Origin: Pecten maximus
Lineage: Eukaryota
Direction: 5' to 3'
NCBI RefSeq assembly: GCF_902652985.1
Contig: NC_047030.1
Coordinates: 11,842,001 to 11,906,000 of the forward strand
Length of the DNA stretch: 64,000 nt
In this document: in pieces, positions 2,132 to 56,342 of the stretch
Position numbering within the stretch: position 1 is the stretch's first letter
Layout of the letters: each line of letters opens with the position of its first letter
The notes under the pieces: model-generated
What the model was told of the DNA's origin: nothing
The model's input: only the letters and a program-made list of their open reading frames with translations
The model's database searches: none
Made by a program: the position numbers and the translations under genes

Positions 2132-5100
2132 ATGGATGACAAAAGGGTGAGGGCTGTCCTTCGTGGATCGTTGCTAGATCTTCCCTACCGCAGTTCCAGG
2201 GTTGTGAGGATCTTCATCAGTTCAACATTCACAGGTACAGCTGTCAATTACATTAGGATCTGCATTTTGATGGATATTTTCTGTATATTTTGTCCTTTTT
2301 GCAAGGATTTTGCTATTACTCAAAGTACTAATTATGTCAGAAATGAATAAAAAAAAATTTGCCATGTACTGGTAATACTTTACATAATACAATAATGTAT
2401 ACTGTTAGAATGGTCAAGAGTACATATATCTCATCTAATTCACAGATTTTTTACACAATTTTTTATCAAAAAAAAAAGAAAAGAAAAAGAAAAATGAAGA
2501 CACTGCATAAAGTCAATATGTTTTCAATTTCTATTTATTTACTTCTTGCTGATCAAATTACATCAGCTTCATTTGTAACTGAAATTATTTTATGCTTTAT
2601 GTCATCTGTTTTATCATCTTATTTTTTATTAATGTCCAACTCACTTACTGTAATGATTGATCTTGTCATTTTGTATTTGAAACTTCATTATTATTAAATT
2701 AAATCTAGAAATGCTGAAATCAAACCAGATGATTGATATAAATTATGAAATTTGCTCTTTTTTCCCCATATTCTAATTAAATTGATTCAGATACGAGAGA
2801 GGAAAGAAATTTATTGATGGAGGAGGTTCACCCCAAACTGACATCCTACTGCAGGAAGAAATACGGACTTGAATACCAGGTAAATTGAAAATACTTCTGT
2901 GAGAACTAGCTGAAGGGTAGAAATAACCATACACTTATAATCTGACAATGTTCTACTTAACTTTGAAACATTGCAGAAACCATAGTGTGAGGCAAACAAC
3001 ATATTTTCATCTCAAAAATAATTATCTACAGTAAAATGTCATATTCAACTTCTGGCGATTTTAACTAAAGTAACATTGATTAATTAGTATGCAAATATAT
3101 TGTAATTATGTATGCTCTTCATAATTCAATGTTTTATTAAAACTAAATGTATTTGATTTCCTGATGTTAATTTGTTTTAAAAGAGGTATCCATAAGTGAT
3201 TGATGTACTGGTGAGTTTATTAATTTCCCGGTGATGTTTAATGATCTAGGTGGTTGATGTACAGGTGAGTTAATTAATTTCCCGGTGATATTTAATGATC
3301 TAGGTGGTTGATGTACAGGTGAGTTAATTAATTTCCCGGTGATGTTTAATGATCTAGGTGGTTGATGTACAGGTGAGTTAATTAATTTCCCAGTGATGTT
3401 TAATGATCTAGGTGGTTGATGTACAGGTGAGTTAATTAATTTCCCGGTCATGTTTAATGATCTAGGTGGTTGATGTACAGGTGAGTTAATTAATTTCCCG
3501 GTGATGTTTAATGATCTAGGTGGTTGATGTACAGGTGAGTTAATTAATTTCCCGGTGATGTTTAATGATCTAGGTGGTTGATGTACAGGTGAGTTAATTA
3601 ATTTCCCGGTCATGTTTAATGATCTAGGTGGTTGATGTACCGGTGAGTTTATTAATTTCCCGGTGATGTTTAATGATCTAGGTGGTTGATGTACAGGTGA
3701 GTTAATTAATTTCCCGGTGATGTTTAATGATCTAGGTGGTTGATGTACCGGTGAGTTTATTAATTTCCTGGTGATGTTTAATGATCTAGGTAGTTGACAT
3801 GCGCTGGGGAGTCCCTGATGATGCCGCTGATGACCATTTGGCCACTTCCCTTTGTCTCCAGGAAATACAGAATTGTCAGAGGCTGTCTACCGGACCAAAC
3901 TTTGTGGTAGGGATAACATGATTGTTTCTTTGTAATGAACTACCTGTAGTAATAATAGATACTCCATTGTAATTAATTACCTGTCCTGATAACCCAACCT
4001 AGTAAGGTGACCTACACTTGGTACTCTCCACTTTTACACTACTCCCTCCTTCTGATGACCAACGATGAAGACAACCACAACCCAGGTTATTTAGCTCAAA
4101 GTAGCCTCTCAATCTCATATAGCTTACACAGGATTGATCAATGGCACCAAATCTGTAATAGGAAGGAGTAGTAAAAAAACAACCTGCCCTTGCTGGGGCT
4201 TGAACTTTAGTGACCTCTTGCTCTCAAGGCAAATATCCTACTAATAGGCTAATGGGAAAATCTCGCTAGATTGTGCTAGTAAGGTGACCTATACTCTCCA
4301 TTTTTTCACTGAAGATTTAAAACTACTTTGGAGATCAAAAATTGAAGATTTCAAAAATGAATTATAATAAAAGTACTTAATATGATATAGCAGTAGTGTA
4401 GTACATTTAAGTGTGAGGTAGGGCGTTAGAATTGTACCTGCTGTCAACATAACATGATCGTAAGAGGCAACTAAATTTGGGGTCTTATCTTTTCTCTTCT
4501 TTCTGAACAACTTTCTTCTTCCTGTCTCCCTTGACAATGCCTCACTTTTGGCCTTGAGTTGAGCATTCGCCCCTGTGAAGAAGGCTTTGTCTTCTGTCCC
4601 CGGGCTGAGACATACCAGAGTCTATAAAAATGGTAGTTGCTACTCCTGCTTAGCGCTCAGCATATTAGGAGTGAGACGACCCGTTCGCCCATTGTCAGTA
4701 TAATGTGACCGGGTGGGGTGTCCTGCTGGGTGTCTTTGGCAGTATGCCTTAGTGAGGTAGCACTAAAAATCAGCAAAAGTTCCGTCCTATCACAAGAAGA
4801 CTTCAAAAAACAAATACAGAAACACCACACGCATGCATATTGCATGCACAGGAGGCCGTCCTAACCTTACCTTACCTGTTGATAGGACATTTAACAAATC
4901 AAACCAAACTAAACCAATTAAATGTACAACAGTGGAAATAATCAATGGTGAAAGAAAATTTAATGTAAATATAATCAATTAACTATAAAGTCGGTCATGA
5001 GAAACATTTGGTCCTCTTTAAATTCATCCTTGCATAAGATGGTACATGTATATTCAGAAAGTGTTCAAAACCAACACTGGTCAAAATTGTTTTAAAAAAG

Positions 5101-8100
5101 GTCAGAGGTCAAGAAATGATACTTGATTATAGTAGATCTGTATCAAAGTTTGGGGAGGGCGTATGTGTGAATCACTTGAATTACTAGTTGATTATTTGTA
5201 GCGAGGGTTTATTTGCCGAGAAATATGGTTGTGTAATAATATAGTTGTTTTATTGGTACAGACATTTCTGAACCAGAAACATGGATTCCATCACCTCCAG
5301 TCATCTATTCCCAGTAAGGAGTTTGATGAACTCATCCAGGCTTTACAGACGCTGGGTCAGGATCACAGTCTGCTGAACGTTTGGTACAAACAGGACACCA
5401 ACTGTATACCACCAGTACACATACTACAGCCAATCAGCTCTATTATAACAGAGTACAAAAACAAGGTCAGCCAATCTGCTGTATTATTACAGAGTACAAA
5501 AACAAGGTCAGCCAATCAAATGAGAGTCTTTTCAAAACTTTGCAGCCAATTACCTCCTTTTTAAATGAGTACTCTGAAAATGTCATTAAACTTTTTTTTT
5601 TTTAATACTTTTATCGTTTTATTATTTTTCACAATTTTCAGACAAATGATGCAATCAATAAATGGAATGTTGTACAACTCAGCTTGAGGCAGTTACTGAA
5701 AACAGCAAGTCAGCATTGCTATGACAACAAGAAAATGACTGCAGAAGAAAAACATAAATATTTTATGTCAGGTATGTAAAACTATTTCTGACAGCAGCAA
5801 TATGAGTATAGTAATATCTTTCCTTTCTTTTTTTCTGTTTAAAAATCACAAAAAATCTGTAACTGGACCATGATGTGGCTCTGACTATCGATCTTTTGCT
5901 CTATAACAGATATCTTTCTGTTAAATTAGAGAGAAATCCATGGCGTGGGAAGGATGTCATATTCCTCTACTTTATATATGTACATCACTCCTTCACAAAG
6001 TCTTCACACCAAAGACATACAACGTACCATAAGCAAGGTTCTTCAGCTCCAAGCTAGGAAGCCTCACAATATATTAAAAGTTCGTGGAGTGGTCACTCAC
6101 ACCAAACTAGTAATAAGAAGGGGAAATGTCCACTAAGTTAAATTGAGCTTCCAACAGTCTGAGTTAGTTAGATGACCTCTACTCTCCTCTTCTTTCAATC
6201 CAATACTACTTTAATGCTCCAAGGTCTAATGACAATCAAGGTCACAATACTACTTTTAGTTTTTAAACAAAAAGCTGCCAGTTATAAGTCCCTCTCTGGG
6301 AAATGGGGGGAACCATATTTTTGGATTGTGTCCATCCGTCCTTCCATCCGTCCTTCCATCCACCGTCTTGTCAGGGCTCTGTCTCCTATACTACCTGTCA
6401 CAGAAACTTCATACTTGGTTCACATTGGTGAGGCAGTGTGTCTGTCAAACATTCAGTAAGTAGAATCAATTTCTACACAAATTCATCTTCTTGGTATATA
6501 ATTTCCAGTAGGGGAATGAATAACACAATGAATATTCTAGAAAACACTAGTGTTCTGTTTACATGGTCCATATCAGCTTTATTAAATCTGTCTACCTTCA
6601 TTTACCAATGTGTAGCACTTACACCATATGATATGGTATGGTACACACTTGGTATGTTTGCAGTGAAAACTTTTCATCAATATTCAACCTGAGCAAATTA
6701 CAGGATGGTCGGGTGGCACAGTGGTAACACACTCGCCTTTCACCTAGGTGGCTCGGGTTCAATTCCCCGATCAGACATGAAAAGGTATGGGGTCACCTGC
6801 CCGACTTTGTGACATGGGTTTTCCCCAGGTACTCCGGTTTCCTCCCACAGTAAGACCCTTCGCATGCTTCCATCTGAGCCAACAAGAGTGAATAATATAA
6901 GTTAATATAACTTGTTTCACAATTGTTGTAAAACAAATAAAGTTTAAAAACCCGAATGAACAAACTGAAAATGTTTAATAGTGACATAAATCACAAAGCC
7001 TTATAAAGTAATACACCTAATCACATAACTAACCTGTTATCAGTGTCTTAACACACACTGCAAAAGTTGTGCTATGAACACATGTTCAATAACACTTATC
7101 AACCTGTGATTGGCTGTAAGTTTTCAGTGTTTCAATTATGATACAGCATCTAATATTAATTATACAATGTGTTGTTACCAAGGAGACAGGGATGATCCTA
7201 TGGCAATTCCTATTTCATTTTCAGTCTATAAAATTCTATTTTCATGAATGTTTATCATATCTAAGTACAAATGTACATTCTGTATTTGATTATCAGAATC
7301 TTTTATGTATTTGTTTCCATTCATTTGAATTTTATAAAACTCATCACAAATTTTTCATTTAATCTTGTTCAAAGGAAAAATTCTTAGACTAATTTTGTTG
7401 ATCTCATATATTTATATATTTTCATATGTTTTTCTATACCAAACTACAGTCACAGAAGAGGAAGTCCTACAGGGAATACTGAAAACGGCTACAAAACCGA
7501 GGAACCACTGTCTGTGTTTCATCCGTATCATTGACGATATAAAACGTCATCTGAATCACAACAAAGCTTGGCGCTTCATTGATATGGTGAACCAGGAGAA
7601 AGTAGACGAGGAGGCTCAGGAAATTCTCTCCAATTTGAGGGATAATAAAGTCTTAAACAAGATGGAAAATTCCAACATATCAAAGTAAGATTTTGAGGCT
7701 TTTGCTTCTACATTATGCTCAGTTACATTTGTATAGTAATGTTGCTATTTCTATATACATGTATACAAATGTATCAGTTCTTAAACATTTTTCATTTCAT
7801 GTTTAATTTTATGAAACAAATCTTTGAAGTTTTTATTTTTACGACCCTTGGGGAATAAAAAAATTAAAACTTGGAGATGAGTTTCATCAGAACTCATACA
7901 AAATTAAAACTTTAAGATATCTTTAATCACATAAGTAAGAAAACTTACAATTTGACAGGTTTAAAGTAAAAATATGGAGGGATTAATCAAACCCAACATC
8001 CATTTTGTGGTGCCAATTTTCAATTCATAATGTAATGTCATTGTCCATATTATGACGTCACAATCAATTTCTGACTGGTACAGAAATATGAATTACTATC

Positions 8101-16683: not shown

Positions 16684-19600
16684 CTAGTTGCCAAAAGCTT
16701 GACTGCTGGCCTCGTCTGTCAGGGCCTGTCGGTATGATTTTACTGCTTCCTTCAAGTCTTGTAACTTTTGTTCACTGTAGGTGTCACAGTATTTCTGTAA
16801 AGTAAAAAGTAATGAATGTCAGAACATATATATGAATTTGTCATGTATCTCTATCATTCATATAATCAATACCTTAAATTCCTGCTGATTGCCTGCAGGC
16901 TATACAATTGAAAACATTTAGAAATGCCTGATGAAGCAGGCTATCTCCCAAAATGTTTTCCAAAAGCCATAAAAAGCAGGCTATTTAAAATTCACATAAT
17001 CTACAGGGTGTGTTGCGATGTCCATAGTACAATGCAAATATATTCCAGGGTTGGTTTGAATACATTTGATGTATTGAGAGAAAGTGAGCTGAACACAAAA
17101 CTTGGTCCAGCATATCTACAATTTCATTGGACAACAAATTCTGAATGATATTCGATCTCAGTTTGAAGGGTGTGTCCACTATGTGATCCAAGTATAAACC
17201 AAGATTGGTTAAAGCTAGACATATACTTTTTGAGCAATAGACTCAAATGCAAAACTTTAAAGTGAAATGCCAGTTAAAAGCAACACCATAGTCTTTCGTG
17301 ACATGTTGTAGACAAGACAAAAATACATAAAATTTATGTTTTTCTAAAATGTCTGTATGTCTGTGGTTTTCAAAGTAACACTACAGAGATTATTTGTTCC
17401 TTTTTCATTGCATCTTGACATCAATTGTCGAGAACCAATTACCAGGTAAGTCAAATGGATATTACCGGTAAGTCGTAAGTGATCACATGTACTAACAACT
17501 AGACTTATCCTGTTAGGGACCTTCATACCAATATCACATAGTGATCAACCAGAGTCCTTCTGAGGTGAGGATCCTTGTAGAAGCTGGTGGCTATCTCAAA
17601 CAATATATGGCCTGTCACATGCCCTCCAAAGTAATTTGAGTAAAGTGTCTTTGGGAAGGACACAACCATTACAGGGCAGGACTGTCTTTGATCTCAACAT
17701 CCCGAGGAACACAAACTGCCCAAGCACAGATTGAACCACACAACTCTGATATCAGCCAAATCAGCATTAGTCAGATGCACTACCAACTAAGCTATTGTGT
17801 CCCAAATTACTTAAGTAATACCTTGGAATAACAGTAACAAATTCAAAGAAGATACCTGAATTGCTGTTTGAATTATAAAGCTATCAAATAAACCAGATAC
17901 CATTTTAATAACCAGCCTTTGTATATATGTTGTAATCATCTTATGGTATCTTATTGTTACTTAACTCAAATATCTGTAATCTGTATACCCTGTAAAAACC
18001 TCTACAATAATCTGAGTAACTACCTTTATTATGATCCGAGTACCTACCTCTACAACAATCCAAGTACCTACCTCTACAACAATCTATAGCTACCTCTATT
18101 ATAATCCGAGTATCTACCTCTATAATGATCCAGGTACCTACCTCTATTATGATCGGAGTACCTACCTCTACAACAATCCAAGTACCTACCTCTACAACAA
18201 TCCGAGTACTTACCTCTATCATAATCAAAGTACCTACCTCTATTATTATCCGAGTATCTACCTCTATTATGATCCGAGTACCTACCTCTATCATAATCAA
18301 AGTACCTACCTCTATTATTATCCGAGTATCTACCTCTGTAATGATCCGAGTATCTACCTCTATTATGATCTGAGTACCTACCTCTATTATGATCCGAGTA
18401 TCTACCTCTATTATGATCTGAGTACCTACCTCTATAATGATCCGAGTACCTACCTCTATTGTGATCCGAGTACCTAACTCTATAATGATCCGAGTACCTA
18501 CCTCTATTATGATCTGAGTACCTACCTCTATTATGATCCGAGTATCTACCTCTATTATGATCCGTATACCTACATCAATTATGATCTGAGTACCTACCTC
18601 TATTATGATCTGAGTACCTACCTCTATTATGATCTGAGTACCTACCTCTATTATGATCTGAGTACCTACCTCTATCAATATCCGAGTACCTACCTCTATT
18701 TTGATCGGAGTAGCTACCTCTATTATGATCGGAGTACCTTCCTCTATAATGATCCAAGTACCTACCTCTATAATGATCCGAGTACCTACCTCTATCATGA
18801 TCCGAGTAGCTACTTCTATTATGATCCGAGTAGCTACCTCTATTATGATCCGAGTACCTACCTCTATAATGATCCGAGTACCTACCTCTATAATGATCCG
18901 AGTACCTACCTCTATAATGATCCGAGTACCTACATTTATTATGATCTGAGTACCTACCTCTATAATGATCCGAGTACCTACCTCTATTATGATCCGAGTA
19001 TCTACCTCTGTAATGATCCGAGTATCTACCTCTATTATGATCTGAGTACCTACCTCTATTATGATCTGAGTACCTACCTCTATTATGATCCGAGTATCTA
19101 CCTCTGTAATGATCCGAGTATCTACCTCTATAATGATCCGAGTACCTACATTATTATGATCTGAGTACCTACCTCTATTATGATCCGAGTATCTACCTCT
19201 GTAATGATCCGAGTATCTACCTCTGTAATGATCCGAGTATCTACCTCTATTATGATCTGAATACCTACCTCTATTATGATCTGAGTAGCTACCTCTATTA
19301 TGATCCGAGTAGCTACCTCTATTATGATCCGAGTACCTACCTCTATCATGATCCGAGTATCTCCCTCTATTATGATCTGAGTACCTACCTCTATTATGAT
19401 CCGAGTATCTCCCTCTATTATGATCGGAGTACCTTCCTCTATAATGATCCAAGTACCTACCTCTATCATGATCCGAGTAGCTACTTCTATTATGATCCGA
19501 GTAGCTACCTCTATTATGATCTGAGTACCTACCTCTATAATGATCCGAGTACCTACCTCTATAATGATCCGAGTACCTACCTCTATAATGATCCGAGTAC

Positions 19601-22600
19601 CTACCTCTATAATGATCCGAGTACCTACATTTATTATGATCTGAGTACCTACCTCTATAATGATCCGAGTACCTACCTCTATCATAATCAAAGTACCTAC
19701 CTCTATTATTATCCAAGTATCTACCTCTATTATGATCCGAGTACCTACCTCTATCATAATCAAAGTACCTACCTCTATTATTATCCGAGTATCTACCTCT
19801 GTAATGATCCGAGTATCTACCTCTATTATGATCTGAGTACCTACCTCTATTATGATCCGAGTATCTACCTCTATTATGATCTGAGTACCTACCTCTATAA
19901 TGATCCGAGTACCTACCTCTATTGTGATCCGAGTACCTAACTCTATAATGATCCGAGTACCTACCTCTATTATGATCTGAGTACCTACCTCTATTATGAT
20001 CCGAGTATCTACCTCTATTATGATCCGAGTACCTACATCAATTATGATCTGAGTACCTACCTCTATTATGATCTGAGTACCTACCTCTATTATGATCTGA
20101 GTACCTACCTCTATTATGATCTGAGTACCTACCTCTATCAATATCCGAGTACCTACCTCTATTTTGATCGGAGTAGCTACCTCTATTATGATCGGAGTAC
20201 CTTCCTCTATAATGATCCAAGTACCTACCTCTATAATGATCCGAGTACCTACCTCTATCATGATCCGAGTAGCTACTTCTATTATGATCCGAGTAGCTAC
20301 CTCTATTATGATCCGAGTACCTACCTCTATAATGATCCGAGTACCTACCTCTATAATGATCCGAGTACCTACCTCTATAATGATCCGAGTACCTACATTT
20401 ATTATGATCTGAGTACCTACCTCTATAATGATCCGAGTACCTACCTCTATTATGATCCGAGTATCTACCTCTGTAATGATCTGAGTATCTACCTCTATTA
20501 TGATCTGAGTACCTACCTCTATTATGATCTGAGTACCTACCTCTATTATGATCCGAGTAGCTACCTCTATTATGATCTGAGTACCTACCTCTATCATGAT
20601 CCGAGTATCTACCTCTATTATGATCTGAGTACCTACCTCGATTATGATCCGAGTATCTACCTCTATTATGATCTGAGTACCTACCTCTATAATGATCCGA
20701 GTACCTACCTCTATTGTGATCCGAGTACCTAACTCTATAATGATCCGAGTACCTACCTCTATTATGATCTGAGTACCTACCTCTATTATGATCTGAGTAC
20801 CTACCTCTATCATTATCCGAGTACCTACCTCTATTTTGATCGGAGTAGCTACCTCTATTATGATCGGAGTACCTTCCTCTATAATGATCCAAGTACCTAC
20901 CTCTATCATGATCCGAGTAGCTACTTCTATTATGATCCGAGTAGCTACCTCTTTTATGATCCGAGTACCTACCTCTATAATGATCCGAGTACCTACCTCT
21001 ATAATGATCCGAGTACCTACCTCTATAATGATCCGAGTACCTACATTTATTATGATCTGAGTACCTACCTCTATAATGATCCGAGTACCTACCTCTATTA
21101 TGATCCGAGTATCTACCTCTGTAATGATCCGAGTATCTACCTCTATTATGATCTGAGTACCTACCTCTATTATGATCTGAGTACCTACCTCTATTATGAT
21201 CCGAGTAGCTACCTCTATTATGATCCGAGTACCTACCTCTATAATGATCCGAGTACCTACCTCTATAATGATCCGAGTACCTACCTCTATAATGATCCGA
21301 GTACCTACATTTATTATGATCTGAGTACCTACCTCTATTATGATCTGAGTACCTACCTCTATTATGATCTGAGTACCTACCTCTATTATGATCTGAGTAC
21401 CTACCTCTATCATTATCCGAGTACCTACCTCTATTTTGATCGGAGTAGCTACCTCTATTATGATCGGAGTACCTTCCTCTATAATGATCCGAGTACCTAC
21501 CTCTATCATGATCCGAGTAGCTACTTCTATTATGATCCGAGTAGCTACCTCTATTATGATCCGAGTACCTACCTCTATAATGATCCGAGTACCTACCTCT
21601 ATAATGATCCGAGTACCTACCTCTATAATGATCCGAGTACCTACATTTATTATGATCCGAGTACCTACCTCTATACTGATCCGAGTACCTACCTCTATTA
21701 TGATCCGAGTATCTACCTCTATTATGATCGGAGTAGCTACCTCTATAATGCTCTAAGTACCTACCTCTATTATGATCCGAGTACCTACCTCTATTATGAT
21801 CAGAGTACCTTCCTCTATAATGATCCGAGTACCTACCTCTATAATGATCCGAGTACCTACCTCTATTATGATCTGAGTACCTGCCTCTATTATAATCTGA
21901 GTATGGTACCTATACCACTATTATGATCCGAGTACCATCCTATATTATGATCTGAGTACATACCTCTATTATGATTCATGTACCTGCCTCTATTTACCTA
22001 CCTCTATTATATCTGAGTACTATAATCCGAGTACCTACCTCTATTATAATCCGAGTATGGTACATATACCACTATTATGATCTGAGTACCTTCCTCTATT
22101 ATGATCAGAGTACCTTCCTCTATAATGATCGAAGTACCTACCTCTATTATGATCCGAGTACCATCCTATATTATGATCCGAGTACCTACCTCTATTATGA
22201 TTCATGTACCTGCCTCTATTATAATCCGAGTATGGTACATATACCACTATTATGATCTGAGTACCTAGTTTTATTATTTGAGTACCTACCTCTATTATAT
22301 CTGAGTACTATAATCCGAGTACCTACCTCTATTATATCTGAGTACTATAATCCGAGTACCTACCTCTATTATGATCCTAGTATGGTACCTATACCACTAT
22401 AATGATCCGAGTACCTAGTTTTATTATTTGAGTACCTACCTCTATTATATCTGAGTACTATAATCCGAGTACCTACCTCTATTAAGTTCAATAGGTCTTC
22501 TGTGTCTGTAGATATATCTTGTGGTACTGGTATTTTCTTGTTTTTGTGGATGTTTTCGAATAGGTGAATTAAACTGACAGCATCAAGTAACCTGGAAAAA

Positions 22601-25600
22601 TAATGGATAACGTATCAAACTAGCATTGAGTAGCCATAGTTTGTGAGGGGTTTTAGTCTGTTTACATTATTGACTGATCACAAAAGGTAATAAATTATCA
22701 AAGTCTATCAGCAGAGCCCAACACTGTGTTATAAATCAATAAATGACATGGAGTACTCCTCGGAAATTGCCCCTGTATTGGAGAATAGCGATAAAACTCC
22801 TCCATACAGATAAATGATTCAAACATGTGGATTCCCATTTGTGCAGAGGCTCAGGTTGTTGGGTAAAATTTCTTAAGATAAAATTTTGTTTTGGAAAAGA
22901 AAATTGTTTTTAATACAAACACACCAATACTTACAAATCATGTTGTATCATGTCCACAAGCAAATATTTAATGTTCTTTCTTAGAATGAAGTAGAAAGAC
23001 ATTGGTCCAAAAAATCGTGTGGATGCCAATTTGTTAAAACATCGGTTCTGCAATACGTAGTCATAAATGGTCTGTGTAACCTGTGGAATAATTCAGAACA
23101 TTACAGTATTGTTCCTAGAAACATGATCCCACAGTTAAATGATTAATTTAGAACTAGAAGTTTTGATTTTCCTGCTTACAAAGAGATTGGCAAGGACTGC
23201 AAGTTGTCATTTTAATGTAATAAATGGATGTTTAAGTTGCCATAGTTACATACTGTAGTGATGAACAACATAATAAACAAGAATTGCAAGTTGTCATGGT
23301 TATGAAATGAATATGAATTGCAAGTTGTCATGGTAACATTAAGAATGGCAATTGCAGGAATTATAAGTTTTAATGGTAAAGATTAAGAATTACATATTGC
23401 TAATTCAACTTGCTATGGTTGCCATGGCTACATAGAGAACAAGAGGCCCAATGGGCCTGTATCGCTCACCTGGCTCTACAGCAAATTTGCAGTTGATTGA
23501 GGTCATTTCTAAAGATACTATGCTGATAACAACTTTATTCAAATATCAGAGTAAGCTAGGTTTATTCCTGTCAATATATTTTTTAGTCCTTCATTCCAGC
23601 ATACTATTGGCCTAAGATCGGGTCTTGGCCCTTGGCTCTAAGCATGCTACAGAGAGGCCTAATATCAAGTCCCTGGGCCTCTTGGCTATTGAGAAGAAGT
23701 CTTTTAAAGATTTTAACCTATTTGACCTATGTAACCTTGAATGAAGGTCAAGGTCATCTATTTGAACAAACTTGGTAGCTCTTCACCCAAGCATGCTACA
23801 GGCCCAATATCAAGTCCCTGGGCCTATTGGTTATTGAGAAGAAGTTGTTTGAAGACTATAGCCTATTTGACCTATGTGACCTTGAATGAAGGTCAAGTCA
23901 TTTATTTTAACAAACTTAGTAGCCCTTCACCCAGCATGCGACAGGCCCAAAATCAAGTCCCTGGGCCTCTTGGTTATTGAGAAGAAGTCATTTGAAGATT
24001 ATAACCTATTTGACCCATGTGACCTTGAATGAAGGTCAAGGTCATTTATTTTAACAGAATTGGTAGCCCTTCACCCCAGCATGCTACAGGCTTAATATCA
24101 AGTCCCTGGACCTATTGGTTATTGAGAAGAAGTCATTTGAAGATTATAGTCTATTTGACCCATGTGACCTTGAATGAAGGTCAAGGTCAGTTATTTTAAC
24201 AAACTTGGTAGCCCTTCACCCCAGGATGCGACAGGCCCAAAATCATGTCCCTGGGCCTCTTGGTTATTGAGAAGAAGTCATTTGAAGATTATAGTCTATT
24301 TGACCCATGTGACCTTGAATGAAGGTTAAGGTCATTTATTTTAACAAACTTGGTAGCCCTTCACCCCAGCATGCTACAGGCTCAATATCAAGTACCTGGG
24401 CCTTTTGGTTATTGAGAAGAAGTCGTTTGAAAATTATAACGTATTTGACCCCTGTGACCTTGAATGAAGGTCAAAGTCATTTATTTTAACAAACTTGGTA
24501 GCCCTTCACCCCAGCATGCTACAGGCCCAATATGAAGTTCCTGGGCCTCTTGGTTATTGAGAAGAAGTTGTTTAAATGAAAAAGTTGACACCGGACGGAC
24601 GACGGACGCTGCACCATGGCATAAGCTCACTTGCCCTTTGGGCAGGTGAGCTAACAAGTATCTGGTGATGTAATAAAATGAAATCATTGCTATGATAACT
24701 AATACTACCAGGTATTAAAACTTCATAAAGACCAGTTTAAAACAAATCAGAAAGATCTCAATTCAAGATTAAACCCTGAAATGAACAGAGGGCAATAAAT
24801 CTTCAAAAAAATAAATCAATAAGCTGCTAAAAGTTGAACATGACAACATATGATTATTAAGCCGAGTATTTAAGAGGTTGGTCAAAAACTGAGAAAGGAG
24901 ATCTTCAGACAAGGGATATTGGTATAAAACTGAGAAAAGAGATCTTCAGACAAGGATCAAATACTGCAATGAAAAAAGGGCAGTAACTTTAAAGTTGAAT
25001 CAAAACACAACTACATATGATTATAAAGCCTTCTGATGTTCAACACTGACCCATACTAATATAAAGAGAAAGAATCATGTTATCTCCTGGTCACATCTAA
25101 GTATATGTATAAGATTAAGCAGGCTAGTTGGAACTCTAAATTGAGTTCCTTTCAGCCATTTAGCTAAAAAGTTTATGAAAACTATGTATGAAATAAGAAG
25201 GATTTTAGAAAATAACCTTTATTTACCTAATAGGCCCTGCCCAGTATATCACCAAATATTGTTCTGTGTTCTTACCCTGATGAAATCTGGGTCATCTGGC
25301 TCAAACTGGACACATGCTCTGTCAAGGATATAGATGATATCTGTCAATCCGTTTTCCAGCAAATGCTACAACAAAGTTAATCAAATTAATATGTTAGTTA
25401 GTTGTTGTTTTCTTTTTATCACTACTTTGACGCGAATGTCAACTACTGTGTCAAGAAAGATAAACCTTCAAATTGAAGTAATTCTTTGACAGAATTAATG
25501 TATGAAATTATTTTGCACAAATTTGAAAATATTTTTAACAATGCTTAATTAGTTTTTTTTAATAATTTCATGAATGTCATTCCTCGTGAACAGCCAGGGT

Positions 25601-28600
25601 CATTTTGAGGCTGGGTCTCATTGTAGTAGTTGGTGACTACCTCATTGAACATACAAGAATCCTGTCGCATTCCATCTAGAGCAATTAGGGTAAAGTGTCT
25701 TGCCCATGGACACAACCAAAACAGCACAGACACATGTAGGGATCGTCAAACAAAGCACCTCAGATCTTCATCCGAGGTTCTATAGCTGGTGCTCTAACCG
25801 ACTGAGTTAATGCATCCCCTTGAGTATTGAATATTCTCCCATCAAATAGGGTTTGATTTTAGACAGGTGATACTATAAGGTGACGTCTTTATTATACATA
25901 CTGCTAAATGGTCTTTCTCAAACATCTTAGGAATCCCAGCAGATACTCCTTCCCTCGGGTAGTATATATGATTAGCACGTGTTCGTTCCTCAGGATTAGC
26001 TGTCCTCAGTGTTCCATCTGTATCACGAACAACTACAACTCTATCCTGAAAAATATTCATTGTATATATTATACAGTATTCTCTTGTGTCTGATAATACA
26101 GTTACAAAGTGTCTATATTTAATGATATAAATAGTTGATTTATTTTGCATTAATGATACAATGTTCATTTGTCCCTGCAGATACACTATAATTCTATTAT
26201 GGTCTCTTCAATATTAAATATGTATAGTTCATTGCTTAGATAGTTGTCAGATATCTTCCACTTTGATTTCCAGAAATACATTTTCAGAGTATCTGTATTT
26301 GAGGGAAAATACATCACAGGACGCTTTTTGTCTCAGTATTGATAGTACACTGTACTGTTCCTTTGAAAGTTTTTTTCATGACCAATATATACTACAAAAA
26401 TTATGCCACTGTGAAGTACACCTAAATTTACATTTGATTTCCTGAAGATTATTACTAATTACAGGATAATATCCAGTTGGGATTAACCGATTGAAATAGT
26501 AATAGCAAAACCCAACCAAATTGTGGCAATGACCCTCAGCAAGTTACTAAAGTAATACTCAATTTTTCCTAAAAATGATGATTTTATTAATTATATTTAC
26601 CCTTTTTCCTTCTCCACCCGAGATGTCGGTAAACATCCATTTTGATGTCAGTGCAGGGCTAATCTCTGGATCATGACACAAAACTTTTGTGCTCTGATCT
26701 TTAGCTTTCATATATGGCGGCATTTTCAGCATTTGTATTGCCCTCTCCATTGCTGAGACTTCCATCTACATACAAAATAAGAATATATTCTAGAAGGTAG
26801 CATAAAGATTCCAAGTGGATCTTGATACCAACCATTGTGAGATTTTTATTCCTCTTAAACCTTTGCTATAAGTCATGTTGACAGTTAATACCACATGTCG
26901 ATTATACTAAGTTTTATTCAAATTCTTTTTATGTGTGATATCCGTTCTATTGTACTAGAATAATTTGAAGATTGCTAATACATCTGGATGTCACAAGACA
27001 GATTACTAATACATCTGGATGTCACAAGACAGATTGTTAATACATCTGGATGTCACAAGACAGATTACTAATACATCTGGATGTCACAAGACAGATTGTT
27101 AATACATCTGGATCGATGTCACAAGACAGATTGTTAATACATCTGGATGTCACAAGACAGATTGCTAATACATCTGGATGTCACAAGACAGATTGTTAAT
27201 ACATCTGGATGTCACAAGACAGATTGTTAATACATCTGGATGTCACAAGACAGATTGTTAATACATCTGGATGTCACAAGACAGATTGTTAATACATCTG
27301 GATGTCACAAGACAAATGGCTAATACATCTGGATGTCACAAGACAGATTGCTAATACATCTGGATGTCACAAGACAGATTGCTAATACATCTGGATGTCA
27401 CAAGACAGATTACTAATACATCTGGATGTCACAAGACAGATTGCTAATACATCAGGATGTCACAAGACAGATTGTTAATACATCTGGATGTCACAAGACA
27501 GATTGCTAATACATCTGGATGTCACAAGACAGATTACTAATACATCTGGATGTCACAAGACAGATTGCTAATACATCTGGATGTCACAAGACAGATTGTT
27601 AATACATCGATCTGGATGCCATCAATTTTGCAAAAGATATGGCCAGGTCTGTACTTTTCTGATGTAATGATGGGTCCTGCTGGCAAATTAGCACATGTAT
27701 TAATTGTGGTATCTTTATGTAACATCAACCCAGTTTCTTCTACAAGCTATATCTGCATGAATCCGACTTTTGTATCTGTTGAATAGTATGCTCTTATACA
27801 TCCAGTCAACAACGCTTCTCGGGCTTGAATATCTGTTTCTTCTGTTTGTTACATGTATATTTTAAGGCATAAACCTTGACAGACATGCAGATGTTGATAC
27901 AGACCTAGAAATCTGAAATCAATATAAAATCACCCAACAAACAACTCTGGTCCAACTGATAAACCAAAATGGTCCAGGTTTCTGCGTATGAAGTATCTGC
28001 ATTTTCATGGCCCTTTTGTGCATGTCATTGTGTATTAAATCCTTACCCATGGTAGATTATAGCTATATATAGTATTACCTACGTAAATGTATACTAACCC
28101 GTTTAAGTTCAACTTCCGACATTAATTCATAGCGAGGTTTTCGATGATGGTCTGTTTTACGGATCCTGACAGCATCTTCCATACTAAGCCGGGATATTTT
28201 TAATAATACTTCTTGCACTTTCCTCTGAAGAAATATTGGTAGGGGGTCTTGTTTAGAAAGAGGTATTTTTCGCCCACCACCTGATGTTGGAGGAGATGAA
28301 GCTGGAGGTTGATGTGTCTCATCAGATGAACCTGAGGATCCAGTGCTACCTGCAGGAAAATTGAAAGTTGTTTAATGTATGACCACATTTAAAAATAGCA
28401 CAAGAATCCCACGGAAGTGGATGTATCGCCTGCGCAGCAAGCTAGGAGAAAAACAGCTTGGATATTCATTGTATCTATGTATGATTTGCCAGATGGATTC
28501 CCATGCAATGAACGAACTCACAAATGATACAGTGCATTCCTCTTTATATCATGTTGCATTTGTCAGACAGAAACATGATATTAACAGGTATATGTGACAT

Positions 28601-37513: not shown

Positions 37514-40185
37514 TAGTGCTGAACCATGTGGTGACTTGTGTCCCACACCTAGTACTGAACCATGTGGTGACTTGTGTATCACACCTAGTACTGAACCATG
37601 TGGTGACTTGTGTCTCACACCTAGTGCTGGACTATGTGGTGACTTGTGTATCACACCTAGTGCTGGACTATGTGGTGACTTGTGTATCACACCTAGTACT
37701 GAACCATGTGGTGACTTGTGTATCACACCTAGTACTGAACCATGTGGTGACTTGTCTCACACCTAGTACTGAACCATGTGGTGACTTGTGTATCACACCT
37801 AGTACTGGACCATGTGGTGACTTGTGTATCACACCTAGTACTGAACCATGTGGTGACTTGTGTATCACACCTAGTGCTGAACCATGTGGAGACTTGTATC
37901 TCACATCTAGTACTGGACTATGTGGTGACTTGTCTCACACCTAGTACTGGACTATGTGGTGACTTGTGTATCACACCTAGTGCTGAACCATGTGGAGACT
38001 TGTATCTCACATCTAGTACTGGACTATGTGGTGACTTGTGTATCACACCTAGTACTGAACCATGTGGTGACTTGTGTCTCACACCTAGTGCTGAACCATG
38101 TGGTGACTTGTGTATCACACCTAGTACTGGACCATGTGGTGACTTGTCTCACACCTAGTACTGGACTATGTGGTGACTTGTGTATCACACCTAGTACTGG
38201 ACCATGTGGTGACTTGTCTCACATCTAGTACTGGACTATGTGGTGACTTGTGTATCACACCTAGTACTGAACCATGTGGTGACTTATATATCACACCTAG
38301 TACTGAACCATGTGGTGACTTGTGTCTCGCACCTAGTACTGAACCATGTGGTGACTTGTGTCTCGCACCTAGTACTGAACCATGTGGTGACTTGTGTATC
38401 ACACCTAGTGCTGAACCATGTGGCGACTTGTGTATCACACCTAGTACTGGACCATGTGGTGACTTGTGTCTCACACCTAGTACTGAACCATGTGGTGACT
38501 TGTGTATCACACCTAGTACTGAACCATGTGGTGACTTGTGTATCACACCTAGTACTGGACCATGTGGTGACTTGTGTATCACACCTAGTACTGAACCATG
38601 TGGTGACTTGTGTATCACACCTAGTACTGGACCATGTGGTGACTTGTGTATCACACCTAGTACTGAACCATGTGGTGACTTGTGTATCACACCTAGTACT
38701 GAACCATGTGGTGACTTGTGTATCACACCTAGTACTGAACCATGTGGTGACTTGTGTCTCACACCTAGTACTGAACCATGTGGTGACTTGTGTATCACAC
38801 CTAGTACTGGACCATGTGGTGACTTGTGTCTCGCACCTAGTACTGGACCATGTGGTGACTTGTGTATCACACCTAGTACTGAACCATGTGGTGACTTGTG
38901 TCTCACACCTAGTACTGGACTATGTGGTGACTTGTGTATCACACCTAGTACTGGACCATGTGGTGACTTGTGTCTCACACCTAGTACTGGACCATGTGGT
39001 GACTTGTGTCTCACACCTAGTACTGAACCATGTGGTGACTTGTGTATCACACCTAGTACTGAACCATGTGGTGACTTGTGTATCACACCTAGTACTGAAC
39101 CATGTGGTGACTTGTGTATCACACCTAGTACTGAACCATGTGGTGACTTGTGTCTCACACCTAGTACTGAACCATGTGGTGACTTGTGTATCACACCTAG
39201 TACTGAACCATGTGGTGACTTGTGTATCACACCTAGTACTGAACCATGTGGTGACTTGTGTATCACACCTAGTACTGAACCATGTGGTGACTTGTGTATC
39301 ACACCTAGTACTGAACCATGTGGTGACTTGTGTCTCACACCTAGTACTGAACCATGTGGTGACTTGTGTATCACACCTAGTACTGAACCATGTGGTGACT
39401 TGTGTCTCACACCTAGTACTGAACCATGTGGTGACTTGTGTCCCACACCTTGTGCTGAACCGTGTGGTGACTTGTGTCTCACACCTAGTACTGGACCATG
39501 TGGTGACTTGTGTCTCACACCTAGTACTGAACCATGTGGTGACTTGTGTCTCACACCTAGTACTGGACCATGTGGTGACTTGTGTATCACACCTAGTACT
39601 GGACCATGTGGTGACTTGTGTCCCACACCTAGTACTGAACCATGTGGTGACTTGTGTCTCACACCTAGTACTGAACCATGTGGTGACTTGTGTCTCACAC
39701 CTAGTACTGAACCATGTGGTGACTTGTGTATCACTCCTAGTACTGGACCATGTGGTGACTTGTGTCTCACACCTAGTACTGAACCATGTGGTGACTTGTG
39801 TATCACACCTAGTGCTGGACCATGTGGTGACTTGTGTATCACACCTAGTACTGGACTATGTGGTGACTTGTGTCTCACATCTAGTACTGAACCATGTGGT
39901 GACTTGTGTCCCACACCTAGTACTGAACCATGATGTGACTTGTGTCCCACACCTAGTACTGAACCATGTGGTGACTTGTGTCCCACACCTAGTACTGAAC
40001 CATGTGGTGACTTGTGTCTCACACCTAGTACTGAACCATGTGGTGACTTGTGTCTCACACCTAGTACTGGACTATGTGGTGACTTGTGTATCACACCTAG
40101 TACTGAACCATGTGGTGACTTGTGTCTCACACCTAGTACTGAACCATGTGGTGACTTGTGTCTCACACCTAGTGCTGGACTATGT
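37514..40185. repeat. 36-bp minisatellite, ~74 copies, intergenic
   Basis: Unit ACACCTAGTACTGAACCATGTGGTGACTTGTGTATC with few variants; several 34-bp units in the left part. Confidence 0.95.
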
Positions 40186-43026: not shown

Positions 43027-44373
43027 ATGGTGCGAGAAACAAAAACCCTCGGTGAAGGTAAGTAGAAACATGGACATTGAAACAAGTCTGTGGTAAGAAG
43101 CTCTGATATACAATTCAATATTCGGAATGCTGACAATCTGTAATTGTGTACAAAACTATAAACTTAAATGTGATAATGTAAATTTTAATGTTAATTTACC
43201 TCCATAGTTCATACTACCAATGTATTTTAATGAAGATAAAAATAGTTGTAGAAATCTAGAGCTTGTAGACCGGCTAGTTGTATATGTAATCTGTTGCACT
43301 ACACTAGAAGTGTTGGCTGTAACGCTGTGTTAGGCACTTCGCCGACTCACCAGTTTAAGGAAAAGGACTATTAAGTATAGAATCTGATCATGATTGACTC
43401 AATGATTTGATGTCTTGTTTCCTGTTACAGGTATCCCTGCCACTGCAGATCCAACAGAATTACCTACTGTCAAAAATATAGCAAACATTGGTAAGTATCC
43501 TCATACAATCACTTACTGTCAAAAATATAGCAAACATTGGTAAGTATCCCAACACACAATAACCTAATGTCACTTATATAGCAAACAGTGGTAATTAATC
43601 CTCCTTCAGAATTACCTACCGCCAAAAGTATCTGTATAAGCCATCGTCTATTGTAAAATATGTACTGTATTGACCATTGACATTTTTTTAAAGTATCAAA
43701 AAGAAAGTTATAATAATGTTGCAAAAAATTGTCATTTTTGTTGTGATTTTACAACAAAAATATTGTGAATTGACACATTATTTCATCAGTGAAGAACGAA
43801 AAATATGTTTTCTTTTTCAGATTCCACAAGACAATTAACAGACTTAGAGATAGCAGCCATTGTAGAAAAGGTGGCTAGGCTCTCACATAGTCATTTGTTT
43901 TTCCATAAAAGTAAGTCAGCTTTTTGTCTAGGATGAGCTACAACTTCTAACAGTAGAAGTAGCAGTTTCCATTAACACAAGTACTAGTGCTTCTTGCATT
44001 CATTGATTCTTAGAAATCAAAACATTTACATTTTATAATAAAACTATTAAAACTTTGCATTTATCCCATTTTAACAAACAATAATATTTTTTAAATTGAT
44101 TTTTAACAAATTTCAGGAGCATGTGACTTTATTCCACAAAGTTTTGATTTACATTCTATTCTTTGTTCAGTGCAAAGTCTCCTAGGCCGTGATGTAGCCC
44201 ACAAAATTGACACGGAAGGAAAGAGAAAAGAAGAGCAGCGATCGAAAACCTTCTACCACATGATGATGACCTACAGGCGACGGAAACAATTCGGATTGTT
44301 GGAGGTGGGGGAGGTGGTGAAGTTGTTACATGAAATGAACATGGAGCAGGTAGCAGAGAGTGTTGAACCTTGA
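43027..44373 (+). CDS. Small uncharacterised protein (127 aa), probable stand-alone death-domain fold
   Basis: Exons 43027-43057, 43431-43490, 43821-43910, 44171-44373. All introns are phase 1 with GTAAGT donors and CAG acceptors; AATAAA at ~44597. The C-terminal 90 aa LTDLEIAAIVEKV...KIDTE...FYHMMMTYRRR...VGEVVKLLHEMNMEQVAESV resemble the six-helix death-domain pattern. Confidence 0.75.
43465..43620 (+). repeat. ~49-bp tandem duplication (2 copies + 1 degenerate) spanning an exon donor
   Basis: TACTGTCAAAAATATAGCAAACATTG|GTAAGTATCC with GT at 43491 and 43540; degenerate TATAGCAAACAGTG|GTAATT at 43591. Confidence 0.88.
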
Positions 44374-50700: not shown

Positions 50701-53700
50701 CCATGGTGTCCCCGACTACAGAGGCTGAGTGACCAGCTGTTGGCTTAGGACTTGTTGGGGACATGGTGGTGATGTGAAACCACCTGTTTGTCTCTGGTTT
50801 GTACATGTGTAGCTCAGAGAAAAACCGGGCAGCCTGGAGAGTAAAGGGACACTTTCAACAACACATTACACCATTACGATTATCTTCAAAATTAATTTGT
50901 TGCATTTATGTATGATCTATAAATTACCTATGATGGTGACCCTAGGACCTCATTATGACATCTTTAGATAAATGTATACTATAATAAGGATATAAATGTG
51001 ATGAAATTTGACACTGGAATGTTACATGTTTCTAGACGGCAGTGCTCCGTCAGCCTTGTCTACTCAAGCTCCAAAAACAGACAATATTGGAAGAAAAATG
51101 CTAGATGACAGAATTGTGGGAAGCATAGACTTCATGCATAGAATAGGGGTGATTTGATTTCCCTCATGTACAGATTTTTTTTTTTTGGGGGGGGGGGGGG
51201 GGGGGTGGGTCGAATATATCCCATGGCATCAGGATTTGAGATACTCAGCAATCGAAAATGGGAATATTCGAGGTGGTGGGGGTGGAGGGTTGATACAGTA
51301 ACCATGCAGAGAATGGGCCAGGGTTGTATGTCCATTATTCAGAGAATATTTGGGGAGGGGTTTTAAGTACGAGATCAGGAGTCATAAGAAACAAAGACTA
51401 TTGGGGATAGTGGTACAGACCTGATGCAGGGGATAAGGAGTAGGATGGCTCCAGCCACCAAAAAGGACTAGGCTGTCTTTGTAGACTGTCATGCTGGAAC
51501 ATGCCTTTGGTGATGGATATGTTCCTGAAATATCGAGCCTTTTTGTTTATACACATATAATTAATTTTCCATTGTTTGTACACAGAATGCGGCTTTCTGA
51601 TTGGTTGAAAAAAAATGTTCATACCACTATGAAAAAAATTAATCAGAGAATGGTGCGAAAAATGTGACGTCACAATACGACAATTGATGTTGCGTATTGA
51701 TTTGAGAAAAAGAATCCCATATAAAACCAGTAAAATTGCACATAAAACATGTTTTAAATTAGAAAATTATTTTCAAAAATTAATTATAAGCGTGGAGGTC
51801 AATTATTTTTTAGTTTTATAAGGGTATGAAATTTTTTTTTTTTCATACCCCGATGAAACAAAAAAAAATTGACATCAATGCTTAAGTAAATATATAAAGC
51901 ACCTATCTTTATGTTACACATGTATACAATCTACCAAAACATGATACATTATTAATAATATTAATTATTTATTAAAACTTATTTGATATACAAATGGTAT
52001 TAGATACGTATAAGACTAACAAATCCATTTTCAGTCATAGTAGGAATTTTCCTTTGACATATATTCCAATATGTTTTGTGATGTTATTGCATGGTACATG
52101 TTTAATCAAAATGTGAGTGCCTTTAAGTTATAGGTAGATATATTATAAATTTAATCATTGATTATAATACTCTACCGCTATGAGCCATCAGCATGACTGA
52201 AGATGTAACATACGACAATCACATACAAACCTATGGCTAGTGGTCGGACCCACTGTCTTGTTGAAAGGTCAAACCTCCAGAGGTCATTGAAGGTTGTATT
52301 TGTGGAAGTGCAGCCACCGAAGATGTAGGCAGATTTGTCATAGTAGCAAGCACAGTGAGAGTAGCGCTCTGTGATGTTGGAGCCAACCTCAGGCAGGATC
52401 TCTGTCCAGCTGATCTTACTGTCCCACAAACTATGAAGGAAGTCAAGGTAGATTTGATGCAGCACACCTGAAACATACCAATGTAATTATTACAACGTTA
52501 CATTAGAACATTAATTATAATTATGTGTAATTTATATATATAATTACATACACAGATAAAATAATGCTGTCTCCCATGATATAAATTGCCATATTTTTCT
52601 GGACAGGAGTTAAAGCTGTAGATTATAAATGCTACTGAAGGACACATTACATACATGTACATATGTATGTAGAATGAATCTAGTGTGCCTCGGTTGCTGT
52701 GATAGTGACTGCAAACTACCCTGTATGGCTGTGTGTTAGTTATCAATCAGTAGGTTTTGTTTAATCCCTCTCTCAAGATCAAATTTCATTTACATTTGTC
52801 ATAGTTTTATAGCATTGGTTGTTACATGAATAATATCCAATGATGCCTAGAGGATATTGAACAGTTTCCCGTTTAATATAACATATATTTCACGAGTATG
52901 ACAGAATATCGATATTTTCACGAGTGTGAAGCACGAGTGAAAAATATTGAAATATTCTGTCATACGAGTGAAATATATGTTATATTTAACGGAATACCAT
53001 TCAATTTTCTTTTATTGCATTTCATAAACTTAAAAACAAAATCAAAAACATCGTAAAATTGACAGTGTCAAAAAGTGCGGGAATCAGTAATGACATCATC
53101 TCTTTGTGACGTTACTCCACATCAGCTTGACGGCGCCATCTTGAAAGGACTGATCGACGAAATTTAAGCATTTTCTGCTGTTATCGGAGAGTCTGTGCAC
53201 GAATCTGGTCTGAACTACTACTAGTCTGAAAATTTCAGAAATACATCAAAATAACCAATTTATCTATCTCCGCTTCGATTGGAAAATCGACAAGTTTCAA
53301 CGAGGTGAATACAAAGGTCCGCTCTGATTTGTCAAAAACGGAAAACTGTTATTTTCACTGCAAAATCTTATATTTTCACTGCTCATTGCTGCAGTAAAAA
53401 TATAAGTTTTATTAGTTTGATAATTTTCTATATTTCACTGGCAAAAATGCAATAAAGGTTTTTTTTTCACATGTGGGATAACATTTTCTCCAAGAAATTC
53501 AATTATAGTTTGTCTTCATATAATTATATAACCTAGCTAGCAGAAAGGATATTTCAGCAAATTACTAATTGATAGTAATGTACTATCATTATCAGTATCC
53601 ATATATATATATAGCAATACATTATATCCAGAGCTGAGGGATCAGGACCCCTGGTAAGCATCACCCGGTAAGCATAGTGTCTGTGTGAATGGGGGCAGGG

Positions 53701-55715: not shown

Positions 55716-56342
55716 ATGATGGATTCAAGCAAGGAAATTGAGGAGAAATTAGATGGACTTGTCCTGGAGTTCTTCAGTACGCTGGAAGACCTATACAAGG
55801 CTCAGTCATGTCTGAATGAGGAAATGAAAAATGGATTCCTACAAATGTCTCGGGCTCGTTACAACATGGGTGCTAAGGCAATTAGTCAATCACAATATGA
55901 TGAGCACAAAATGGCAGCATCTGTTAAAGTGGTTATTGATGATGACAACAAAGGAGGCAATGCATTTGTCATCAATAATGTGACTAGATCTGTCAAAAGT
56001 GAAATTCCTGAAAAAGACACTGCGGTGGAAACTGTCGGACTAAGAAAACGTAATGTACAAAAATCTGAACAAGATACCGAGGAAAAAGAACCAGCCAATC
56101 AGAAGGACAAAAATCCTGGAGAAACAAATATCAGTGTAGATAAAAAAAGGTTACCTGACCCACTGAACTGGTTTGGCGTACTTGTGCCCCAGAGTTTAAG
56201 ACAAAGCCAAGCTAGTTTTAAACAAGCAGTCGAACAGGCTGTGAACATTGCAAATCTGAAACTAAAAATTGCAGAATTGCGAAAAGATTACATAAATTGT
56301 ATGGGAATAAAGGTAAAGGAAAAACTGAATGAAGATGATTGA
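55716..56342 (+). CDS. CCDC115: Coiled-coil domain-containing protein 115 (V-ATPase assembly factor VMA22), 208 aa, single coding exon
   Basis: LDGLVLEFF..LE, MKNGFLQMSRARYNMG, GLRKR, DPLNWFGVLVPQSLRQSQASFKQAVE...IANL: the hallmark CCDC115/Vma22 motifs. Confidence 0.95.
   Translation: MMDSSKEIEEKLDGLVLEFFSTLEDLYKAQSCLNEEMKNGFLQMSRARYNMGAKAISQSQYDEHKMAASVKVVIDDDNKGGNAFVINNVTRSVKSEIPEKDTAVETVGLRKRNVQKSEQDTEEKEPANQKDKNPGETNISVDKKRLPDPLNWFGVLVPQSLRQSQASFKQAVEQAVNIANLKLKIAELRKDYINCMGIKVKEKLNEDD

Follow-up and report, generated by a model that had tools for sequence, protein, structure and literature searches.

What becomes of a 5' splice site when most of the intron behind it is made up of copies of the same site? 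The question is raised by MRPS22 in a 64,000-nt window of the Pecten maximus genome (NC_047030.1, positions 11,842,001 to 11,906,000; positions below refer to this window, read as position 1 onward, unless a contig is named). Its last intron carries a tandem array of about 180 units, modeled on the end of the preceding exon and the donor that follows it. The sequence of the array, assembled contigs crossing its borders, the literature on comparable repeats and the distribution of similar arrays over the genome were combined, in order to evaluate which donor is used, whether the other copies have an effect, and how such a structure may have arisen.

The host gene and the array

The gene, on the minus strand, had been named MRPS22 in an earlier note based on the sequence alone, and this identification was confirmed: four of the nine ORFs tested match the Pfam model PF10245 (MRP-S22), and exon 6 (22935..23081) matches both this model (E 2.5e-14) and PDB chains of mS22. 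From the sequence, the gene has eight exons. Exon 7 (115 nt, 22477..22591), taken alone, finds neither a mS22 match in the PDB nor any match in Pfam, so that its status as an exon rests on the RNA contigs, which connect it to exon 6 on one side and to exon 8 on the other, along with its translation. Exon 8 (16684..16794), the last coding exon, has 36 codons plus the stop, and is supported by RNA contigs of X6, X16 and X18. A coding-potential model trained on long open reading frames was dropped, as it assigned only 1.2 bits to the true exon 7. Upstream, intron 5 contains an array of its own (145-bp unit, 6.3 copies, 23655-24568), which probably represents a dispersed repeat family, because related sequences are present in other loci examined (L193). 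Neighboring genes detected by Pfam are Vma22/CCDC115 (55716-56339, plus strand) and a Kelch-repeat gene (52181-52486, minus strand).

Intron 7, the last intron of the gene, is 5,682 nt long in the assembly, and its donor GT is at 22476. The array occupies the first 4,479 bases, from the exon 7 donor onward, in agreement with the earlier estimate of about 4.5 kb out of 5.7 kb. The remaining 1,203 nt (16795..17997, minus strand), parts of which lie under low-depth contigs of X6 and X18, are non-repetitive and end in a single acceptor. By TRF and unit parsing, the array is a donor-spanning ("mirage") minisatellite with a 24-bp unit and about 180 units (17998..22484, minus strand). TRF defines the regular part between 17998 and 22308, with 178.9 copies and 87% matches; beyond 22308, irregular rows of 21, 37, 72 and 150 bp continue up to 22484. 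Each unit is formed by 8 exonic and about 16 intronic bases, the former being the last 8 bases of exon 7; the statement that the unit reproduces the exon 7 donor, 8 exonic bases included, thus holds in the strict sense that these bases are shared with the real end of the exon.

The earlier description of about 180 copies of a live donor is correct as to the number of units, and has to be corrected as to their quality. The exact donor 9-mer GAG/GTAGGT is found at 103 sites, the authentic one counted in; 155 of the 168 parsed units keep the GT and 13 have lost it, and "live" is demonstrated for the first copy only. The previously listed variants are all present among the 168 parsed units: GTAGAT in 25, GTAGCT in 14 after GAG and in 5 after GAA, GAAGGT in 8. 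One array unit, GAG/GTAAGT, matches U1 better than the authentic donor does, a point against the view that the copies are simply ignored. The units nearest the exon are irregular, as had been noted (37, 76, 55, 51 and 79 nt, within 21900..22476, minus strand), but this is not special to the proximal end: the distal units (17998..18400, minus strand) diverge from the consensus to the same extent when bins are compared, the final two bins having 26 and 16 differences and the central ones 11-21.

The regular 24-mer is free of stops in the frame of exon 7, and long open frames (up to 868 aa) consequently run through the array. They were rejected as protein-coding, being a by-product of the stop-free unit and skipped in the mRNA. 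Read-through from exon 7 in its own frame meets a stop after 35 codons, i.e. 105 nt, as previously calculated; this stop, ending 108 nt past the donor, is supplied by the proximal units.

Donor use and possible effects of the downstream copies

The authentic donor of exon 7 (22471..22479, minus strand) is the first copy of the array and the sole copy seen in use, as judged by the loose ends of contigs. On the donor side, contigs of X6, X8 and X19 run from exon 6 into exon 7 and, at 22477, break off into letters of exon 8; in the same contigs, no joint or loose end starts from copy 2. From the acceptor side, contigs of X6 and X16 leave 16796 with exon 7 letters, not array letters, and no downstream copy is joined to exon 8 among the contig ends listed at 16794, a set that leaves out 30 loose ends, those of X18 at the acceptor among them; contigs are a form of data that drops rare isoforms. 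The figures for X6 and X8 are identical and probably derive from one data set, so that the first-copy junction is found in three studies (X6/X8, X19 and X16); X19 alone is recorded as RNA, X6 and X18 having been labeled so by guess. The end of exon 7 and the acceptor at 16794 are therefore where the earlier note had placed them. At a resolution where rare forms are invisible, the main mRNA uses the authentic donor at the terminus of the array; since contigs lose such isoforms, minor use of copies 2-4 may occur alongside it.

In X6, contigs of low depth are found at either end of intron 7, and in X18 over its 3' part; one of these contigs crosses the acceptor (depth 10.4). They may correspond to unspliced RNA or to DNA. 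Intron 6 has no contig cover in X6, whereas intron 7 is partly covered. As a gap in contigs proves nothing, no claim of intron retention is derived from this difference.

These contigs would suit the reading that the array is a weakly active splicing modifier, which either slows the removal of the last intron or leaks to the nearest copies, the length of each allele tuning MRPS22 output. The use of two extra downstream sites in human 6-16 and CBS (PMC1557585, introduction) points in the same direction, as do nine AATAAA hexamers within the array (18030-22425, minus strand), each lying among donor copies, two of them proximal (22425 and 22275). No copy, however, is joined to exon 8 among the contig ends listed, so that MRPS22 differs at contig resolution from the two human genes; no contig indicates cleavage at the array hexamers. 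In addition, the parts of a gene cannot be ranked by contig depth, the samples with intronic cover are those whose RNA label is guessed, and X16 has no such cover. We consider this reading improbable.

Still less credit is given to the model of the earlier note, in which the array soaks up U1 snRNP, while its irregular proximal units are kept in order to send mis-spliced RNA to nonsense-mediated decay (NMD). The 103 exact donor 9-mers are in its favor, and so is the fact that the proximal units provide a stop at +108 although the regular 24-mer has none. In mammals, decay according to the junction rule requires a stop that precedes the last junction by more than 50-55 nt. A transcript spliced from copy 2 (+37) would change frame and reach a stop three codons into exon 8; with copies 3 and 4 (+113 and +150), the distance between stop and last junction would be no more than 5 and 42 nt, and only copies from +187 onward are candidates. 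The stops produced by the nearest copies being too close to the last junction, or past it, the likeliest mis-splicing products would escape junction-dependent NMD. As the distal edge is irregular too, the irregularity of the proximal units needs no selective reason, and the proposed routing to NMD is not supported. The proposed U1 sponge is implausible from the numbers: U1 snRNP is present far above the ~100-150 transient sites which nascent RNA from two alleles would offer, and this site number appears negligible. Moreover, larger arrays with stronger donors are found in unrelated genes (see below). The whole model is thus very unlikely.

Equally unlikely is the reading that the array exists but has been inflated by assembly error: a 452-nt exact repeat at offset 1,463 and further long exact blocks would allow it, but the 168 parsed units fall into 49 distinct types in ordered blocks, the array contains no N letters, both its edges are present in contigs of a second, divergent DNA sample (X5), and arrays of like size are numerous in the genome. 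Over the proximal units, X6 contigs differ from the assembly in that 58 other letters replace 17.

Origin of the array and comparison with known systems

All genome matches to the exact unit pattern (10 of 10, exact matches only) fall inside this array, on the basis of which the unit appears to derive from the MRPS22 locus itself, and an origin from a dispersed satellite or transposon was rejected. The array spans a real exon-intron boundary, its unit is locus-derived and most copies keep the splice signal, all of them features of a mirage. Taken together, the data make it highly probable that this is a locus-born mirage minisatellite straddling the exon 7 donor, in which the first copy is used and the other copies are likely ignored, as neutral passengers. 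A short tandem duplication across the exon 7/intron 7 boundary may have served as seed; growth by slippage and unequal exchange would then have left the internal block duplications and the ragged edges. Two circumstances would explain why the array is tolerated: past the exon 7 acceptor, the spliceosome commits to the donor lying furthest upstream, as in human F7 (PMC1557585), and none of the array copies belongs to a separate exon bounded by an acceptor.

The F7 gene is the closest precedent for donor choice. In its intron 7, the first unit of a 37-bp VNTR spans the exon-intron boundary and identical donors follow. The most upstream functional donor is used, and the activation of an exonic cryptic site predicted by exon definition was not seen; downstream copies prove functional once the upstream ones are mutated, and copies with a perfect consensus can compete (PMC1557585). 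The MRPS22 array shares with F7 the boundary-spanning first unit, the repeated donors and the use of only the most upstream one. The F7 repeat comprises 5-9 units of 37 bp, 4 bases of each being exonic; in MRPS22, about 180 units of 24 bp carry 8 such bases each, and the 103 exact donors lie in an invertebrate last intron. The F7 copies have been proven functional by mutation (PMC1557585). The introduction of the same paper lists further human donor-spanning minisatellites, in 6-16 (25 pseudo-sites), CBS intron 13 (15-20 units), LMNB2 and PDGF.

Amphioxus provides the second group of precedents. Mirages have been described in the globin genes BflGb6 and BflGb9 and in Adh3 (PMC3087553), and in PGBD5 and troponin C (PMC3902484), as duplications of exon-intron boundaries which leave normal splicing undisturbed; they turn over block-wise, and the edges of the clusters escape homogenization (PMC3087553, PMC3902484). 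Somatic instability has been reported for the Adh3 mirage. The MRPS22 array resembles the amphioxus cases as a tandem boundary duplication in a marine invertebrate, with the main splicing undisturbed, signs of block-wise turnover and ragged cluster edges (PMC3087553); those in the globin genes and PGBD5 have 2-7 units of 60-160 bp, and MRPS22 has far more copies (PMC3087553, PMC3902484).

The suggestion that the locus is an extreme test of donor choice is accordingly to be kept in part. It is a natural test, and an extreme one against the published cases, not within its own genome, and donor choice had already been tested on F7 (PMC1557585). What MRPS22 adds is scale: an oddity so far known with tens of copies here reaches about a hundred exact decoys, among which first-donor choice still holds at contig resolution. 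Taken alone, the locus matters little; it would matter more as the marker of a genome-wide pattern.

Donor sequences in tandem arrays across the genome

The abundance of tandem arrays was evaluated in 1.4 Mb, drawn from 14 chromosome-scale contigs as 14 blocks of 100 kb. This sample contains 543 arrays, which occupy 328 kb of it; 13 of them reach or exceed 4,479 bp, and 8 reach or exceed 179 copies. The size of the MRPS22 array is therefore ordinary within this genome, and, the genome being rich in such arrays, needs no special function. The array is most likely harmless, and belongs, as a large case, to a type of repeat known from lancelet and human genes.

Other donor-associated arrays are of interest for comparison. 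The largest of these, on the minus strand, extends over 12.1 kb (G000:C18 ~12,031,356-12,043,458, from L194:1356 to L195:3458), with units of 54-61 bp and 100 perfect CAG/GTAAGT donors, and fills the intron that interrupts the P-loop motif in a gene for a DNA2-like helicase; the Pfam matches of this gene, Dna2_Rift and AAA_11, have E values of about 0.001-0.002, below the curated cut-offs. In the same gene, a second array with a unit of ~65 bp follows an upstream exon (L195, ~5430-6620). Closely comparable in size to that of MRPS22 is a 3.1-kb array of 143 copies of a 22-bp unit, on the minus strand as well, starting in the end of a likely cysteine-rich exon (L048, G000:C1 ~5,223,900-5,227,000). 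A further array, 43 bp repeated 19 times, spans the donor of a JmjC/Cupin_8 exon (L045, G000:C1 ~4,977,430-4,978,230; Pfam E 5.5e-13).

In order to look for a general bias, octamers occurring three times at a spacing of 20-48 bp were counted genome-wide, using the reversed octamer as control; these triplet counts are dominated by long arrays. Triplets of three donor octamers exceed their reversals by 2.3-11 times (10,200 vs 929; 6,036 vs 2,226; 18,054 vs 7,873), whereas acceptor octamers reach 0.5-1.25 times (437 vs 867; 4,904 vs 3,913). A depletion of acceptors, suggested by the former pair, was rejected in view of the latter. As single occurrences, the first donor octamer and its reversal are about equally frequent (59,377 vs 58,024). 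A GT-to-CT variant also gives 740 triplets vs 69, single controls scattering widely. Relative to non-array sites in the sample, the three donor octamers give 227-384 triplets per site, nine others 2-141; with Markov models of array units as reference, the frequency of two donor octamers is 2.1-5.5 times that expected, and that of six others 0.07-1.6 times.

The context of the arrays was evaluated with exons predicted rather than annotated. An exon-like stretch lies upstream of 7 of the first 11 donor-octamer arrays on C1; for isolated sites located outside repeats, the figure is 9 of 34 (p 0.035). One of the seven is doubtful, and without it p is 0.07-0.14. For the isolated sites, 40 were taken from the first 100 of the list without clusters, and 6 of these 40, located in repeats, were set aside. 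At eight donor arrays on C1, Pfam supports one of 13 candidate exon frames (JmjC/Cupin_8), short exons being mostly below its reach. A blind survey of the 14 blocks revealed no clear donor excess among 298 arrays. Donor scores of at least 6 were found in 8 of 226 units, vs 6 reversed and 4.3 shuffled (maximum 10), and a score of 7 in 2 units, vs 1 reversed and 0.2 shuffled; a donor recurs in 37 of the 298 arrays vs 34 reversed, and is accompanied by an exon-like upstream stretch in 3 vs 4. The filter used in this survey missed the DNA2-like array.

A donor bias in array seeding is thus plausible, not established. Under neutrality, the sample leads one to expect about 1% of sites in the terminal unit of a TRF array. 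The excess of donor octamers in arrays may point beyond chance seeding, and to this extent weighs against the passenger view of the MRPS22 copies. In its broad form, the proposal is that real donors are amplified into minisatellites several times more often than look-alikes or acceptors, and that hundreds to thousands of genes carry arrays of decoy donors, some with at least 100 copies; we advance it tentatively, as a serious candidate that falls somewhat short of being probable. If true, it would point to a mutational bias linked to splicing or transcription, or to a selective filter, and would provide a genome-scale natural test of first-come donor choice, in which existing RNA data on the many polymorphic arrays could be used to relate decoy use to copy number, strength and distance. 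The openly accessible literature searched yielded no genome-wide or bivalve study of donor-spanning minisatellites, and PMC10078293 and PMC12783039 contribute nothing specific; a preference for donors as minisatellite seeds would be a mechanism not described there.

Other arrays are present within the window. Two intronic ones (26969-27608, 31 bp repeated 20.5 times; 37514-40185, 36 bp repeated 74 times) have no visible link to splice sites. Three on the plus strand, assigned by sequence only, appear to have one. Donor-spanning duplications are located at likely exon ends at 5427-5518 (41 bp, 2.2 copies) and 43449-43594 (49 bp, 3 copies), and a 54-bp unit repeated 11 times (3196-3797) spans a likely acceptor in a gene for a STAND/NACHT-type ATPase. 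Most units of the latter array hold a donor-like CAG/GTGAGT 15 nt after the acceptor copy, and would thereby form a row of potential micro-exons.
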